The position numbers were made by a program, and so were the translations under genes. The notes below the pieces were generated by a model that saw only the letters and a program-made list of their open reading frames with translations, was not told where the DNA came from and did not search any database. Below are positions 1,067-4,788 of a DNA stretch of 54,818 bases, in pieces (within the stretch, counting starts at the first letter, position 1; the number at the start of each line of letters is the position of its first letter). The DNA comes from a virus (lineage: Duplodnaviria > Caudoviricetes): positions 1-54,818 of the IMG/VR virus record IMGVR_UViG_3300046495_000001; one strand, written 5' to 3'.

Positions 1067-1353
1067 ACATCGAACTGATTGAAGACGCCGCAGTATCCCC
1101 GACCGAACTGCTTGAGCAACTGGGCCTGCTGGACGACGATGCCAAGGGTACGCTGCACCAGATGTCACTGATCATCATCGCTACGCTGCTGTCCAAGACC
1201 GGCACTGTGATTCTGATGTCCGACATCAAGGGTGATGGCGTGGCGAACATCATCGCGGCCGGTAACCCGGCACTGGTGCCCCCGCTGATGTACACGGCAA
1301 GCGAGGCGGCGGACGCTATGTTTAAACGCCCCGAGGGGAGCACACAACAATGA
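1063..1353 (+). CDS. Hypothetical protein
   Basis: ATGA overlaps with both neighbouring genes. Confidence 0.65.
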   Translation: MNIELIEDAAVSPTELLEQLGLLDDDAKGTLHQMSLIIIATLLSKTGTVILMSDIKGDGVANIIAAGNPALVPPLMYTASEAADAMFKRPEGSTQQ

Positions 1354-4277
1354 GCCAACCCTACAAGACAATTTTATGTGTAGACGCCGAAACACGCTGG
1401 AGCAGCAGGCCCACCGATTGGAGCGAAGACCCATTCACGCTGAGCAAGATGACTACGGAAGAATATATCCGCAGCCCACACTTCAAGGCGTTCGGGTTCT
1501 GTATCCATGAGGTGGGTTCGTCGCAGCCGGTGCAGTGGTATCGCCATGAAGAATTGCCCAAGATTCTCGGCATGTACGACTGGACGAAGACCGCTGTGCT
1601 GGCGCACAACGCGCAGTTCGACGTGGGCATCCTGTCCATGATCTATGGCATCGACCCCTGCTTCATCTTCGACACGCTCTCCATGGGGCGTGCGCTGCGT
1701 GGCGTCGAGGTCGGCAACTCCCTGATGAAGCTGGCTGAAGACTACGGACTGCCGCCCAAGGGCAAGGCCGTGTACAGTACCGATGGACTGTACGACATAG
1801 GTATGGCTATCGAGAAGGAACTGGCGGACTACTGCAAGCATGACGTATTCTTGTGTGAAGAGATATTCGCCAACTTCATGCTGCGCATCGACCCCGTTAC
1901 GCGTGAGTCTGCAGGCCCGTACCCCACGAAGGAACTACGCCTGATCGACATGACCGTGCGTATGTACACCGACCCGGTGCTGGAGTTGGATCAGCAGATG
2001 CTGGAGAGGGCGCTGGAAGAAGACAACGGCAAGCTGGCCGCTGCTCTGGAACGTGTGGGCGCGGAGCCGTCGCAGTTGGCGAGCAACGACCAGTTCGCTG
2101 AGATTCTGCAGAAGCTGAGCGTGGAGGTGCCCAAGAAGCCTAGCCCCGCGAACAAGGACAAGATGATCTTCGCCTTCGCCAAGAACGACGCGCTGTTCCA
2201 ACAGATGCTCAACGGTGACAACGAAGACGTGGCGCTCTTGTGCGAGGCGCGACTGAAGGTGAAGTCCAACATGGAGCGCAACCGGGCACAACGCTTCATC
2301 GACATCTCCGAGCGTGGGAACCTGCCGGTGCCACTGTCCTACTACGGTGCCGCCACGGGCCGCTGGACTGCATCGAAGGGCAGCAACATCAACATGCAGA
2401 ACCTGAAGCGTGGCTCCGCGCTGCGCAATGCGATCATGGCACCCGAGCATCATGTGGTTGTGGTGGGCGACTTGTCACAGATCGAGCCGCGTGTGTTGGC
2501 GTGGCTGGCGGGCTACGAGACGATGCTGTCGATCTTCCGCGCAGGTGGTGACCCCTACGCTACCTTCGGCTCTACCATGTTCAGCATTGCAGGTATGACC
2601 AAGGAAAGCCACCCGCTGCTGCGCCAGAGCGCCAAGAGTGCGATGTTGGGTTGTTTTGGTAGCCAAACGCAGGTGTTGACAAAACGGGGGTGGGTTACTA
2701 TACTGGACGTAGCCAAGGAGGATTTACTATGGGACGGAGTGGAGTGGGTAGCGCATCAGGGACTTCTAGCACAGGGGGAGAAGGAGGTACTTACAGCGAT
2801 GGGCGTCAGTGCAACTTCGGGCCACGAAATCCTGACGGAAGCTGGGTGGCAGGAGTGGAGCGCGGCCCTGCGAAAGCCTTCCCTTTTCCAGTCGGCGCTA
2901 TTTTTGGCGAACTTACCTGTCTTGGGTGGGAGCGACAAACGGATAAGCGAGGTAACGGGTGCTACCACCCACGGATGCGCTGCTCTTGCGGATGGGAGGG
3001 TATCGTCCACCGCTCCAATATCAAGCACGGACGTAGTACCCGCTGCCGTAGCTGCGCTTTCAAAGCGTCAATACAAACCCGCTACTACACCAAAGGATAC
3101 TTCGACGCGTGCCCTGACATCAGGCACCGTGATAGGCTACTTGACCGCATCAGCGCGATTGTTGTTCGCTGCACTAACACAAGTAGCCAAACGTATCCAG
3201 ACTACGGTGGCAGAGGTATCACGGTACACCCAGAATGGCTTGCGGATCGGGTCGCGTTCCTACGCTATCTTGTCACCCTTGATGGCTGGGACAAACCACA
3301 GCTTCAGCTTGACCGGACAGACAACAGCAAGGGTTACCAACCGGGCAACCTGCGCTTTGTCACGCGTTCAGTCAACACGGCCAACAAACGCAGGATCACC
3401 GCCCGAGAAGTCGTTGACCTACGACAGCGCATTGCCGCACTTGAAGCAGAGAATGCAGACCTACGACATCGCTATGGCAGGCCCGCGCAATAGGTACACG
3501 ATACTGACTGACGTTGGCCCTATCGTGGTTCACAACTGCGGATACCAGCTCGGGTGGGCGAGCTTCGCTGCGCAGCTTCTGGTGGGTTTCCTCGGTGCCC
3601 CGCCTCAACGCTATACCAAGGCCGATGCCAAGCAGTTGGGCGTGACAGCGCAGGATGTGCTGAAGTTCACCACCAACAAGGGCTATATGGAGAAGATGGC
3701 AGAGATCGCGCACACCTGCACCGAAGACGAGTTGCTGATCCACTGCCTTGCAGCCAAGGCCATCATCGACAAGTACCGGGCTGCAGCCGAGCCGGTGGTG
3801 GACTTCTGGCAGTTCCTTGGTGAGCGTTTGGAGCAGAGTCTGGTGGGCGGCGAAGAGTACAACTACAAGAACGTGCTCATCTTCCGCAAGAACGAGATTG
3901 AGTTGGTCAACGGCATGACGATCCGCTACCCCGACCTGAAGATGCACGTGGACGAGAAAGACCCAAAGAAGCGTGCGATCTACACGTACCAAGACGGCAA
4001 GAAGCGTGTGAAGCTGTACCCCGGCAAGATATGCAACAACGTGACGCAAGGCACAGCGCGCATCATCATGACGGACGGTATGCTGCGTACACAGAAGCGG
4101 TATCGCCCGGTGCTCACAGTGCACGACGAGCAGGGTGTGATCGCACCGCTGGCAGAAGCAAAAGAGGCGAAGAAGTTCCTGTACGACTGCATGGTGCAGG
4201 TTCCCAAGTGGATGCCGGGGATTCCACTGAACGCTGACGTAGGGTTTCATCAACGATATGGAAAGGCTAAGGGATGA
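1350..4277 (+). CDS. polA: Family A DNA polymerase with 3'-5' exonuclease, interrupted by an intein
   Basis: ExoI DAET, ExoII HNAQFD, ExoIII YCKHD, TGRW...NMQN, motif A DLSQIEPR, motif B RQSAKSAMLG|CGY (rejoined after splicing), motif C TVHDE. Confidence 0.95.
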   Translation: MSQPYKTILCVDAETRWSSRPTDWSEDPFTLSKMTTEEYIRSPHFKAFGFCIHEVGSSQPVQWYRHEELPKILGMYDWTKTAVLAHNAQFDVGILSMIYGIDPCFIFDTLSMGRALRGVEVGNSLMKLAEDYGLPPKGKAVYSTDGLYDIGMAIEKELADYCKHDVFLCEEIFANFMLRIDPVTRESAGPYPTKELRLIDMTVRMYTDPVLELDQQMLERALEEDNGKLAAALERVGAEPSQLASNDQFAEILQKLSVEVPKKPSPANKDKMIFAFAKNDALFQQMLNGDNEDVALLCEARLKVKSNMERNRAQRFIDISERGNLPVPLSYYGAATGRWTASKGSNINMQNLKRGSALRNAIMAPEHHVVVVGDLSQIEPRVLAWLAGYETMLSIFRAGGDPYATFGSTMFSIAGMTKESHPLLRQSAKSAMLGCFGSQTQVLTKRGWVTILDVAKEDLLWDGVEWVAHQGLLAQGEKEVLTAMGVSATSGHEILTEAGWQEWSAALRKPSLFQSALFLANLPVLGGSDKRISEVTGATTHGCAALADGRVSSTAPISSTDVVPAAVAALSKRQYKPATTPKDTSTRALTSGTVIGYLTASARLLFAALTQVAKRIQTTVAEVSRYTQNGLRIGSRSYAILSPLMAGTNHSFSLTGQTTARVTNRATCALSRVQSTRPTNAGSPPEKSLTYDSALPHLKQRMQTYDIAMAGPRNRYTILTDVGPIVVHNCGYQLGWASFAAQLLVGFLGAPPQRYTKADAKQLGVTAQDVLKFTTNKGYMEKMAEIAHTCTEDELLIHCLAAKAIIDKYRAAAEPVVDFWQFLGERLEQSLVGGEEYNYKNVLIFRKNEIELVNGMTIRYPDLKMHVDEKDPKKRAIYTYQDGKKRVKLYPGKICNNVTQGTARIIMTDGMLRTQKRYRPVLTVHDEQGVIAPLAEAKEAKKFLYDCMVQVPKWMPGIPLNADVGFHQRYGKAKG
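2676..2721 (+). promoter_or_regulatory. Internal sigma70-type promoter and SD for the out-of-frame endonuclease
   Basis: TTGACA 2676-2681, 17-nt spacer, TATACT 2699-2704, AAGGAGG 2715-2721, ATG 2729 seven nt later. Confidence 0.7.
2729..3493 (+). CDS. HNH-type homing endonuclease nested inside the intein in a different reading frame
   Basis: G-x-x-FGELT, RCSCG...RCRSC Zn motifs, YPDYGGRGITV..W, LDRTDNSKGYQPGNLRFVT...NTANKR, typical of phage HNH endonucleases. The start could instead be GTG 2846 or 2855. Confidence 0.85.
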   Translation: MGRSGVGSASGTSSTGGEGGTYSDGRQCNFGPRNPDGSWVAGVERGPAKAFPFPVGAIFGELTCLGWERQTDKRGNGCYHPRMRCSCGWEGIVHRSNIKHGRSTRCRSCAFKASIQTRYYTKGYFDACPDIRHRDRLLDRISAIVVRCTNTSSQTYPDYGGRGITVHPEWLADRVAFLRYLVTLDGWDKPQLQLDRTDNSKGYQPGNLRFVTRSVNTANKRRITAREVVDLRQRIAALEAENADLRHRYGRPAQ

Positions 4278-4576
4278 TTATTCCAAGCGAGTTTAAGATC
4301 GGGCACTACACCTACAAGGTAGTGATGAAAAAGCGCATCAACAGGAGCGGTACCTGCTGGGGACGTTCCTATTTAGGGCCGCGAGTGATACACCTAGCTA
4401 CGCACCCAAAAAAACGTGCGTTGACCGAGGCAGAGATCACCGTCACCTTCTGGCATGAGTATGCGCACTGCATGCTTTACCAGATGGGCCATCCATTGTG
4501 GCAAGACGAAGCGTTCTGCGATATGCTGGGTGAGAGCTTGGAACGCACGCTCAGTACGGCTAAGTTTAAGGAGTAG
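4274..4576 (+). CDS. Small HExxH metallopeptidase-like protein
   Basis: TFWHEYAH motif plus downstream E. ATGA overlap with polymerase stop. Confidence 0.65.
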   Translation: MIIPSEFKIGHYTYKVVMKKRINRSGTCWGRSYLGPRVIHLATHPKKRALTEAEITVTFWHEYAHCMLYQMGHPLWQDEAFCDMLGESLERTLSTAKFKE

Positions 4577-4578
4577 GT

Positions 4579-4788
4579 ATGGCAGGCCCAAACTACGGCT
4601 TCGGCTTCGCGCCGATAAAACAGGAGGGGTCACCCATAGTCGTTGACCCCAGTCACATAGGTACTGCGAAACCCGGCGTAGAAACAACCTACGTCGAGCG
4701 TCGCGTCCCGTCCTATTTGGAAGACGAGGCGCATGCGGTGATCGACGCGTGGCTGCGCATCAAGGGTTACGACCCGGAGAGCATCTAA
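4579..4788 (+). CDS. Hypothetical protein
   Basis: AAGGAG SD, tightly packed with neighbours. Confidence 0.6.
   Translation: MAGPNYGFGFAPIKQEGSPIVVDPSHIGTAKPGVETTYVERRVPSYLEDEAHAVIDAWLRIKGYDPESI

Follow-up and report, generated by a model that had tools for sequence, protein, structure and literature searches.

The window analysed here is the whole of the 54.8-kb IMG/VR virus record IMGVR_UViG_3300046495_000001 (Caudoviricetes), whose source sequence also turns up in peat metagenomes. Its gene for a family A DNA polymerase (PolA) is probably host to a composite selfish element, a motif-B PolA intein whose linker DNA encodes, at an offset of +2 to the polymerase frame, an endonuclease of the HNH superfamily. 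The out-of-frame architecture of intein and nuclease has already been published by others, and the window element joins this known kind; new here are a putatively PacI-like nuclease family without the catalytic His, its breadth across PolA inteins including those of well-known isolates, and its occurrence in both alternative frames and never in frame. The features of the element, in window positions, are as follows.

1350-4277, + strand: PolA precursor open reading frame (ORF), 975 amino acids (aa), reading through the intein (ORF list, Pfam, PHROG)
2628-2651, + strand: N-extein flank (..SAKSAMLG, polymerase motif B), upstream half of the presumed homing site (intein-less relatives)
2652-3536, + strand: class-1-type intein, 295 aa, Cys1 to Asn295 (clean insertion, invariant residues, weak PDB profile matches)
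2652-2900, + strand: N-terminal splicing region with blocks A and B, TxxH at 2814-2825; the leader of the HNH ORF overlaps it from 2729
2715-2721, + strand: Shine-Dalgarno (SD)-like AAGGAGG, 7 nucleotides (nt) upstream of the nested ATG, written in the intein codons K-E-D
2729-3493, + strand: HNH-type endonuclease ORF nested at offset +2 to the polymerase frame; counted from its ATG it has 254 aa (PHROG, conservation, ratio of nonsynonymous to synonymous substitution rates (dN/dS), AlphaFold2)
2981-3055, + strand: N-terminal beta domain of the HNH protein, four invariant Cys (C85, C87, C106, C109; invariant 18/18)
3203-3220, + strand: YGGRGI motif in the helical domain, HNH residues 159-164 (Y159, G160, R162, G163, I164 invariant)
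3308-3376, + strand: predicted nuclease core L-D195-R196-x-D-x3-G202-Y203-x-P205-x-N207 ... N216 (invariant columns)
3441-3536, + strand: intein blocks F and G (LKQRMQTYDIA..GPRNRY..VVHN); 3441-3493 also encodes the HNH C-terminal helix and stop
3537-3560, + strand: C-extein flank (CGYQLGWA), with Cys+1 as the presumed splicing nucleophile; downstream half of the presumed homing site

The polymerase ORF matches Pfam DNA_pol_A (1.1e-21) and phrog_17 (1.9e-64), and the DNA_pol_A match is interrupted at residue 438 by the 295-codon insert in motif B. The borders read AMLG|CFGSQTQVLT ... IVVHN|CGYQLG, the insert running from Cys435 (TGT at 2652-2654) to Asn729 (ending at 3536) and being followed by Cys730. 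This insert is a class-1-type intein, for which splicing is predicted from its position and motifs. An earlier note on this DNA had described its splicing blocks as intact, and C1, the TxxH residues T55 and H58 of block B, D272 of block F, H294, N295 and C+1 proved invariant in all 18 aligned inteins; the N-terminal splicing region (2652-2900) also has invariant columns (A2 and A3). The same site is without an insert in 79 of the 80 nearest PolA relatives, where it reads ..SA(L/M)LG|(C/A)GY... In these intein-less alleles the +1 codon (window 3537-3539) encodes Cys in 56 and Ala in 23, and alleles with Ala at +1 would be unable to support splicing and may therefore resist productive invasion unless the codon is co-converted.

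The nested ORF was compared across 24 loci, namely the window, 20 IMG/VR contigs (21 were found by scanning, of which 20 were complete enough), EBPR siphovirus 2 and two Jerseyviruses; protein alignments and AlphaFold2 inputs for both frames were taken from the same 18 loci. In all 24, the insert lies in the motif-B region (R..(A/G)K....G|C...HN|CGY; in the Jerseyviruses a few residues upstream, still within motif B), the polymerase ORF runs through it, and a nested ORF at +2 starts 77-203 nt past the intein start and stops 1-61 nt before the intein end. Since the nested ORF lies wholly inside the intein, intein and nuclease travel as a single piece. The +2 offset is the "-1" frame of the earlier note, which had reported it as open from 2690 to 3493, overprinted on the intein and furnished with phage HNH motifs. 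From GTG 2690 to TAG 3493 this frame encodes 267 aa, within a stop-to-stop opening of 2663-3490, and all the motifs named are present (CSCGW, CRSC, YGGRGI and LDRTDNSKGYQPGN). The best PHROG matches of the ORF were phrog_374 (7.1e-33), phrog_2081 (4e-21) and phrog_3377 (1.5e-20); phrog_374 and four further matching families are named HNH endonuclease, and three more matches are named restriction endonuclease, endonuclease or endonuclease VII. Searches against Pfam and NCBIfam returned no match, including none to Pfam HNH. The second frame is conserved in relatives, the HNH protein sharing 52-69% identity in the 17 other aligned loci, and a search for near-identical DNA among phage records gave no match. 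The overlap of the endonuclease tail with block F, also seen by the earlier note, is conserved in both frames: ALEAENADLRHR is invariant in the HNH frame, and LKQ.MQTYDI, written by the same bases (LKQRMQTYDIA in the window), is near-invariant in the intein frame. We infer a nuclease activity for the nested protein, and its four invariant Cys are a presumed zinc site that would bind the metal.

Both frames are kept open and are selected in different parts. As already noticed for the window, stop codons are absent from both the polymerase and the nested frame, and this holds in all 24 loci, with 11-28 stops in the third forward frame. When each locus was shuffled 2000 times by synonymous codons with the HNH protein retained, a mean of 2.7-7.7 polymerase-frame stops appeared and at most 2.6% of the shuffles were stop-free. 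Variability by codon phase was followed in window coordinates along a DNA alignment of 20 non-duplicate loci. The most variable phase was polymerase position 3 in the exteins and up to about 2860. Between there and about 3460 it moved to polymerase position 2 (the third codon position of the nested ORF), and past about 3460 it was again polymerase position 3. Over 2882-3442, the HNH frame has a dN/dS (Nei-Gojobori, pairs with unsaturated dS) of 0.08-0.38, against 0.9-6.3 for the polymerase frame; the median ratio of nonsynonymous to synonymous proportions (pN/pS) over 190 pairs was 0.39 in the HNH frame versus 1.22 in the polymerase frame. Purifying selection thus acts on the intein frame at both ends, where the splicing blocks lie, and on the HNH frame in the middle, which is the pattern that the earlier note had expected from a comparison of this kind. 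Because selection in the centre is on the nested frame, and the polymerase frame is relaxed there yet stop-free beyond the shuffles, the centre of the intein frame is constrained solely to stay open.

[quoted passage not shown] The HNH model consists of a disordered leader (residues 1-27, pLDDT <50), the four-Cys beta domain (strands within 62-92, pLDDT 81-93), a helical domain with YGGRGI, a core hairpin (192-196 and 208-212) at the D-R...N core and a long C-terminal helix; D195, G202, Y203, P205, N207 and N216 are invariant in the protein alignment. A Foldseek search of BFVD first returned an uncharacterised protein of Salmonella phage LPSE1 (gp39), which is itself the same nested ORF, followed by phage HNH and AP2-HNH homing endonucleases (E 1e-11 to 1e-8). 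In a profile search of the PDB the top match of the HNH protein, a weak one (E 0.37), was residues 83-130 of R.PacI, with D-R, G-Y-x-P-x-N and the downstream Asn in register (PacI 92-113). The aligner VIA-align paired PacI (3m7k) with model residues 116-214 over 80 residues at Z 4.0 and rank 42, a value within the noise range of the aligner. Among the 50 rows listed no other was aligned to the nuclease core; rank 25, an axonemal complex (model 135-215), also fell in the C-terminal half. The best rows (Z 5-6) were Tudor/SH3-like barrels, which were rejected, as they cover residues 47-104 alone.

The element is scattered among closely related polymerases, and this patchy distribution is consistent with horizontal spread. 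A single one of the 80 nearest PolA relatives (locus L053) carries the intein. An N-extein tree of 100 rows, 21 of them intein-bearing (L011 was omitted as too short), requires at least nine intein gains or losses, at least five of them forced by well-supported branches, in a sample that is not neutral, the intein-bearing rows having come from a nuclease search and the others from an extein search. L053 and the intein-less L074 have polymerase genes that differ by 0-3 nt per 60 nt, plus a clean 291-codon insert; immediately upstream of the insertion, however, seven synonymous differences fall within 24 nt (homologous to 2628-2651), a patch that looks like a co-conversion tract. Between distant hosts the HNH core is 47-55% identical versus 24-44% for the extein, and the C-terminal block of the intein reaches 78-81% identity with the clade L018-L023, again above the extein values.

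The nested ORF also has a plausible start of its own. The heptamer AAGGAGG occurs four times in the window, and an SD core of at least 5 nt precedes 1.3% of all its ATGs. An SD-like core with GGAG or GAGG stands before the inferred ATG in 17 of the 24 loci. In other clades the nested ATG lies at +92, +98, +137 or +203 from the intein start, always in the nested frame and inside the intein and in most cases with an SD, which in several clades is encoded by the conserved intein codons GEK(E/D)V.

Several results count against a composite element of intein and nuclease. On the nuclease side, the position of the general-base catalytic His of HNH enzymes is occupied by Arg196 in 18/18 sequences, the core hairpin is not followed by a confident helix (residues 215-222, pLDDT <50), Foldseek of the model against the PDB gave nothing at E 0.001 or better, and the two links to PacI are individually insignificant. 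On the intein side, neither Pfam nor NCBIfam finds a Hint domain in the intein frame, and likewise no LAGLIDADG or HNH domain, the latter in agreement with the earlier note; Pfam run on all 18 intein-frame sequences gave two chance matches and no Hint. The AlphaFold2 model of this frame has nothing confident even in the splicing blocks and says nothing on a Hint fold, which therefore rests on motifs, position, weak profile matches and mini-intein relatives. As to expression, a clear SD ahead of the inferred ATG is missing in 7 of the 24 loci, and no RNA run was among the listed sequencing runs that contain the window sequence. As to mobility, the co-conversion-like patch comes from a single close pair, and extein codon usage, which was tried as a general co-conversion signal (Ser AGY versus TCN, Leu-Leu TTGTTG), was suggestive but confounded by relatedness. 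Finally, about half of the 80 nearest PolA relatives (intein-less; L033-L105) show an opening of 200-300 codons at +1 in the N-extein (e.g. L034:2863-3717), and since such long openings are common in polymerase genes outside inteins, openness by itself is weak coding evidence. These +1 openings may reflect codon usage or an unrecognised overlapping gene.

The most durable alternative, though an improbable one, is a nested protein that is conserved and translated without being a homing nuclease, acting instead as a sequence-specific DNA binder (a regulator, a phage competition factor or a non-cutting recombination helper). The invariant Arg in place of the general-base His and the lack of a significant match to any solved nuclease would both suit such a role, and, according to a review, some His-less groups of His-Me finger proteins have indeed lost nuclease activity. 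Reviews also describe PacI as an enzyme without the catalytic His, whose role is taken by a loop Tyr, with Asp and Asn as the metal ligands, and the invariant D195, Y203, N207 and N216 align with residues of this active His-less nuclease. Moreover, the scattered distribution and the co-conversion-like patch require a DNA break or an equivalent, and relatives of the protein occupy positions of homing endonuclease genes, for example splitting PolA in Escherichia phage PGN829.1. We therefore propose, as a lead, a PacI-like His-less chemistry for the nested nuclease; membership in the PacI-like group (group 20 of Jablonska et al. 2017) is not established.

Alternatively, the nuclease could be made by -1 ribosomal frameshifting, as a fusion of the N-extein, the intein N-terminal domain and the HNH part. 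The offset of +2 is indeed what a -1 shift would give, and in 11 of the 24 loci the opening of the HNH frame extends upstream past the start of the intein. Several clades, however, have in-frame stops between the intein start and the ATG, no slippery heptamer XXXYYYZ occurs within 2600-2900, RNA folding around the nested start (2680-2780) shows no unusually stable structure (z -0.9), and the SD and ATG sit at clade-specific positions, all of which makes frameshifting highly unlikely. Given the SD-ATG pair and the lack of a heptamer or notable RNA structure, internal initiation is the simplest reading of how the nuclease would be produced.

It is even less likely that the insert does not splice at the protein level, being either a tolerated unspliced insertion, for which the ShiLan domain offers a precedent (PMC11855218), or an intron. 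The blank Hint searches in all 18 members and the low-confidence fold would be in line with this. Nevertheless, the insert sits inside the catalytic motif B, starts with Cys and ends with His-Asn before a Cys, and its TxxH and block F/G residues are invariant throughout. A PDB profile search with the intein frame gave 11 matches, weak ones (E 0.12-0.69) but all of them inteins (including Mtu RecA, Spl DnaX and Neq Pol), relatives of 120-158 aa at the same motif-B site have the size of mini-inteins, and the record of phage Ent1 annotates the homologous insert as an intein. An intron, in addition, would not require an open polymerase frame, yet this frame is open in 24/24 loci against the shuffles.

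In homing theory, the nuclease decays after fixation, and mini-inteins do exist, but a decaying relic, or an assembly artefact made by two compensating indels, is the least likely account and already contradicted, in the first case by the low dN/dS of the HNH frame and by an ORF that is intact in 24/24 and, in the wider sweep described below, 58/62 loci, and in the second by identical DNA in contigs from other runs and the same offset in independently sequenced isolates. Such contigs were obtained from two other peat-metagenome runs, out of four runs examined; they cover 2738-3469, 2400-3260 and 3458-3800 with 0 differences and 0 gaps, so compensating sequencing errors are excluded, the more so as independent isolates and metagenomes share the offset. 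One other-run contig (X5, record 2) matches the window over 3440-3469 only and then diverges upstream, where it resembles an L004-type nuclease tail. This partial match suggests that related variants of the element share the habitat, and the invariant stretch of block F and helix could be a recombination joint.

The composite element could work as follows. The polymerase would be translated straight through, and the intein would splice itself out together with its meaningless linker. Internal initiation at an SD-ATG of its own, with the SD spelled by intein codons, would yield the nuclease as a separate product. In a mixed infection the nuclease may cut an intein-less polA at or near the motif-B site, using a PacI-like site in which the metal is bound by Asp and Asn and the base role of the His falls to a loop Tyr, and repair off the intein-bearing allele would then copy the intein, the nuclease and a short flank. 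As to origin, a free-standing nuclease gene may have entered the intein, which the earlier note took to have been a mini-intein. An out-of-frame state is to be expected from such an entry, because an in-frame one would bring the stop codon of the gene into the polymerase frame. The sole mini-intein with a readable history (L147, 141 aa) went in the opposite direction: compared with L149, L131 and L143, it has lost only the core of the nested ORF, both ends of which still stand in the +2 frame. It derives from a full element by a clean deletion, the outcome to be expected in the decay phase of the homing cycle.

The same nuclease recurs in a broad range of PolA inteins. The best matches of the nested protein in isolated phages all lie in DNA polymerase genes at the same +2 offset, in EBPR siphovirus 2, the Jerseyvirus Salmonella phages and Pseudomonas phage MR14. 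In a tblastn search against isolated phages, 163 of 656 records covered at least 80% of the query; among the 60 matches listed, the 15 records with such coverage all fell in polymerase regions, of phages of Salmonella, Shigella, Escherichia, Proteus and Pseudomonas plus EBPR siphovirus 2. A wider sweep with the intein N-terminal domain (A3) added 79 further loci, about 20 of the loci with complete inteins being contigs already in the first set. It yielded 62 complete inteins of the "CFG..T.VLT" type in PolA motif B, of which 58 carry a +2 nested ORF of 225-289 codons and the remaining four are mini-inteins of 135-158 aa. Nuclease motifs in frame with the intein were found in none of the 62, and no fused in-frame relatives were found among longer proteins, which is weak evidence.

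A second intein subtype ("CIAEG/CIAH..LVLT"), also in PolA motif B, was found in 13 loci, and 10 of these have the same nuclease family nested at offset +1 (L171, L176, L177, L179-L181, L183-L185 and L188, the intein starting at locus position 2501 in most). Their nested start has AAGGAGG in the intein codons GEKEV and an ATG at +145, and the nested protein is 29% identical to the window HNH protein (E 1e-17). Of the other three loci, L178 (125 aa) and L187 (120 aa) are mini-inteins and one could not be delimited. The closest PolA relative of the window (L026, 74% N-extein identity) has no motif-B intein; it carries a CIAEG-type intein (L026:4804-5715) at a second PolA site, ICNN|C...HN|CTQGTARI, with an HNH ORF nested at +1 (L026:4967-5650, phrog_374 5e-54). 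The aphid-symbiont phage APSE-2 (L108, DQ092617.1) has the same second-site intein in its P45 polymerase, and its P46 (locus 250-672), annotated as conserved hypothetical, is the out-of-frame (+1) HNH protein (phrog_374 3.8e-54).

Taken further, out-of-frame nesting could be the stable form, kept by selection, of an old partnership of PolA inteins with one HNH family, reached at least twice and never fused in frame. We regard this as possible but rather doubtful. Two nesting modes, +2 in the CFG type and +1 in the CIAEG type and at the second PolA site, bear on it, as does functional DNA shared at both ends, where conserved intein codons (KED, GEKEV) spell the SD and the invariant C-terminal helix uses the bases of block F. 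If such a partnership did exist, nuclease synthesis would be coupled to, and perhaps throttled by, translation of the polymerase, and the nuclease would be unable to leave the intein.

According to papers citing the work, Gorbalenya put forward in 1998 that inteins may hold nucleases out of frame or in antisense. The actinophage inteins that the earlier note had mentioned as similar correspond to those of a 2025 preprint by Gosselin, Arsenault and Gogarten, in which an endonuclease VII-like nuclease lies in frame 3. Like the window element, they have a His-Me finger nuclease in another frame between the splicing blocks, an intein-frame product without recognisable structure and a patchy distribution among close extein alleles, and invasion by a free-standing nuclease gene is likewise proposed as the origin. 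They differ in that the actinophage nuclease matches T4 endonuclease VII (Z 6.5 to 1E7D), whereas that of the window belongs to a His-less YGGRGI / D-R...G-Y family. The window type, moreover, is found in phages of Proteobacteria and peat-metagenome phages at PolA motif B, and its ORF also overlaps functional splicing blocks at both ends. A DnaX intein of cyanobacteria, in which a LAGLIDADG endonuclease lies out of frame (Phillips, DeSimone and Gogarten, bioRxiv 10.64898/2026.09.14.751524), resembles the window element in its overlapping +2 ORF, a putative upstream SD, omega that is low in the nuclease frame and high in the intein frame, and the coexistence of full, mini and empty alleles; it differs in having LAGLIDADG instead of HNH and in residing in a bacterial chromosomal gene instead of a phage polymerase. 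In actinophage DNA methylases, the ShiLan domain (Arsenault et al. 2025, PMC11855218) is described as a hidden, out-of-frame and actively homing HNH over which the host frame is stop-free, as here, but it has no splicing domains. Canonical inteins are like the window element in that the coding region of a homing endonuclease interrupts a splicing domain, of the Hint fold in their case and putatively so in the window, and that the element moves by homing, as is presumed for the window; but their LAGLIDADG or HNH part belongs to the intein polypeptide, whereas the window nuclease would be made as a polypeptide of its own in another frame. The restriction enzyme R.PacI (PDB 3LDY/3M7K), a rare cutter of the HNH type without the His, aligns weakly (E 0.37; Z 4.0) with the window HNH protein at the D-R at the end of strand 1, the loop G-Y-x-P-x-N and a downstream Asn; it differs in being a restriction enzyme of 142 aa with two Cys4 zinc sites.

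The elements of the Jerseyviruses (Ent1, SE2, LPSE1 and others), EBPR siphovirus 2 and MR14 are homologous to that of the window, with the same motif-B region, intein type and +2 ORF and 41-47% HNH identity, and that of APSE (P45/P46) differs in its PolA site and its +1 nuclease. The Ent1 annotation mentions splicing domains only, and LPSE1 gp39, like APSE-2 P46, is hypothetical. No statement of a hidden nuclease in these PolA inteins was found in the parts of the literature covered, including comparative-genomics papers on Jerseyviruses, Felix O1 and APSE, with subscription journals and supplements lying outside that coverage. Many phage inteins are filed as mini or endonuclease-less, among them those of well-used Salmonella Jerseyviruses and of APSE; these do carry a working-looking nuclease gene that is hidden or called hypothetical in the annotation, which changes how intein mobility and the homing cycle should be scored in phage genomes. 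The family, which occurs in two frames and at two sites and has alleles that are full, deleted or empty, also offers a large natural test set for the evolution of overlapping genes and for the merger of a free-standing nuclease with an intein. It further draws attention to a large group of phage "HNH" proteins in which the active site would be PacI-like and lack the His, and the chemistry is a prediction.

Two variants of the family stand apart from this layout. In the N4-like Escherichia phage PGN829.1 (L109, MH733496.1), a free-standing member (locus 2998-3654) splits PolA upstream of motif A, the polymerase being annotated as two coding sequences (locus 1184-4606). In L015 (2388-3479) and L016 (2924-4015), the inteins are 364 aa long, about 74 aa longer than the others; the extra DNA encodes in the HNH frame a tandem second copy of the N-terminal Cys module (..ELVCTGWERKTD..MRCACGWEG..), and the nested ATG sits past the N-terminal splicing domain.

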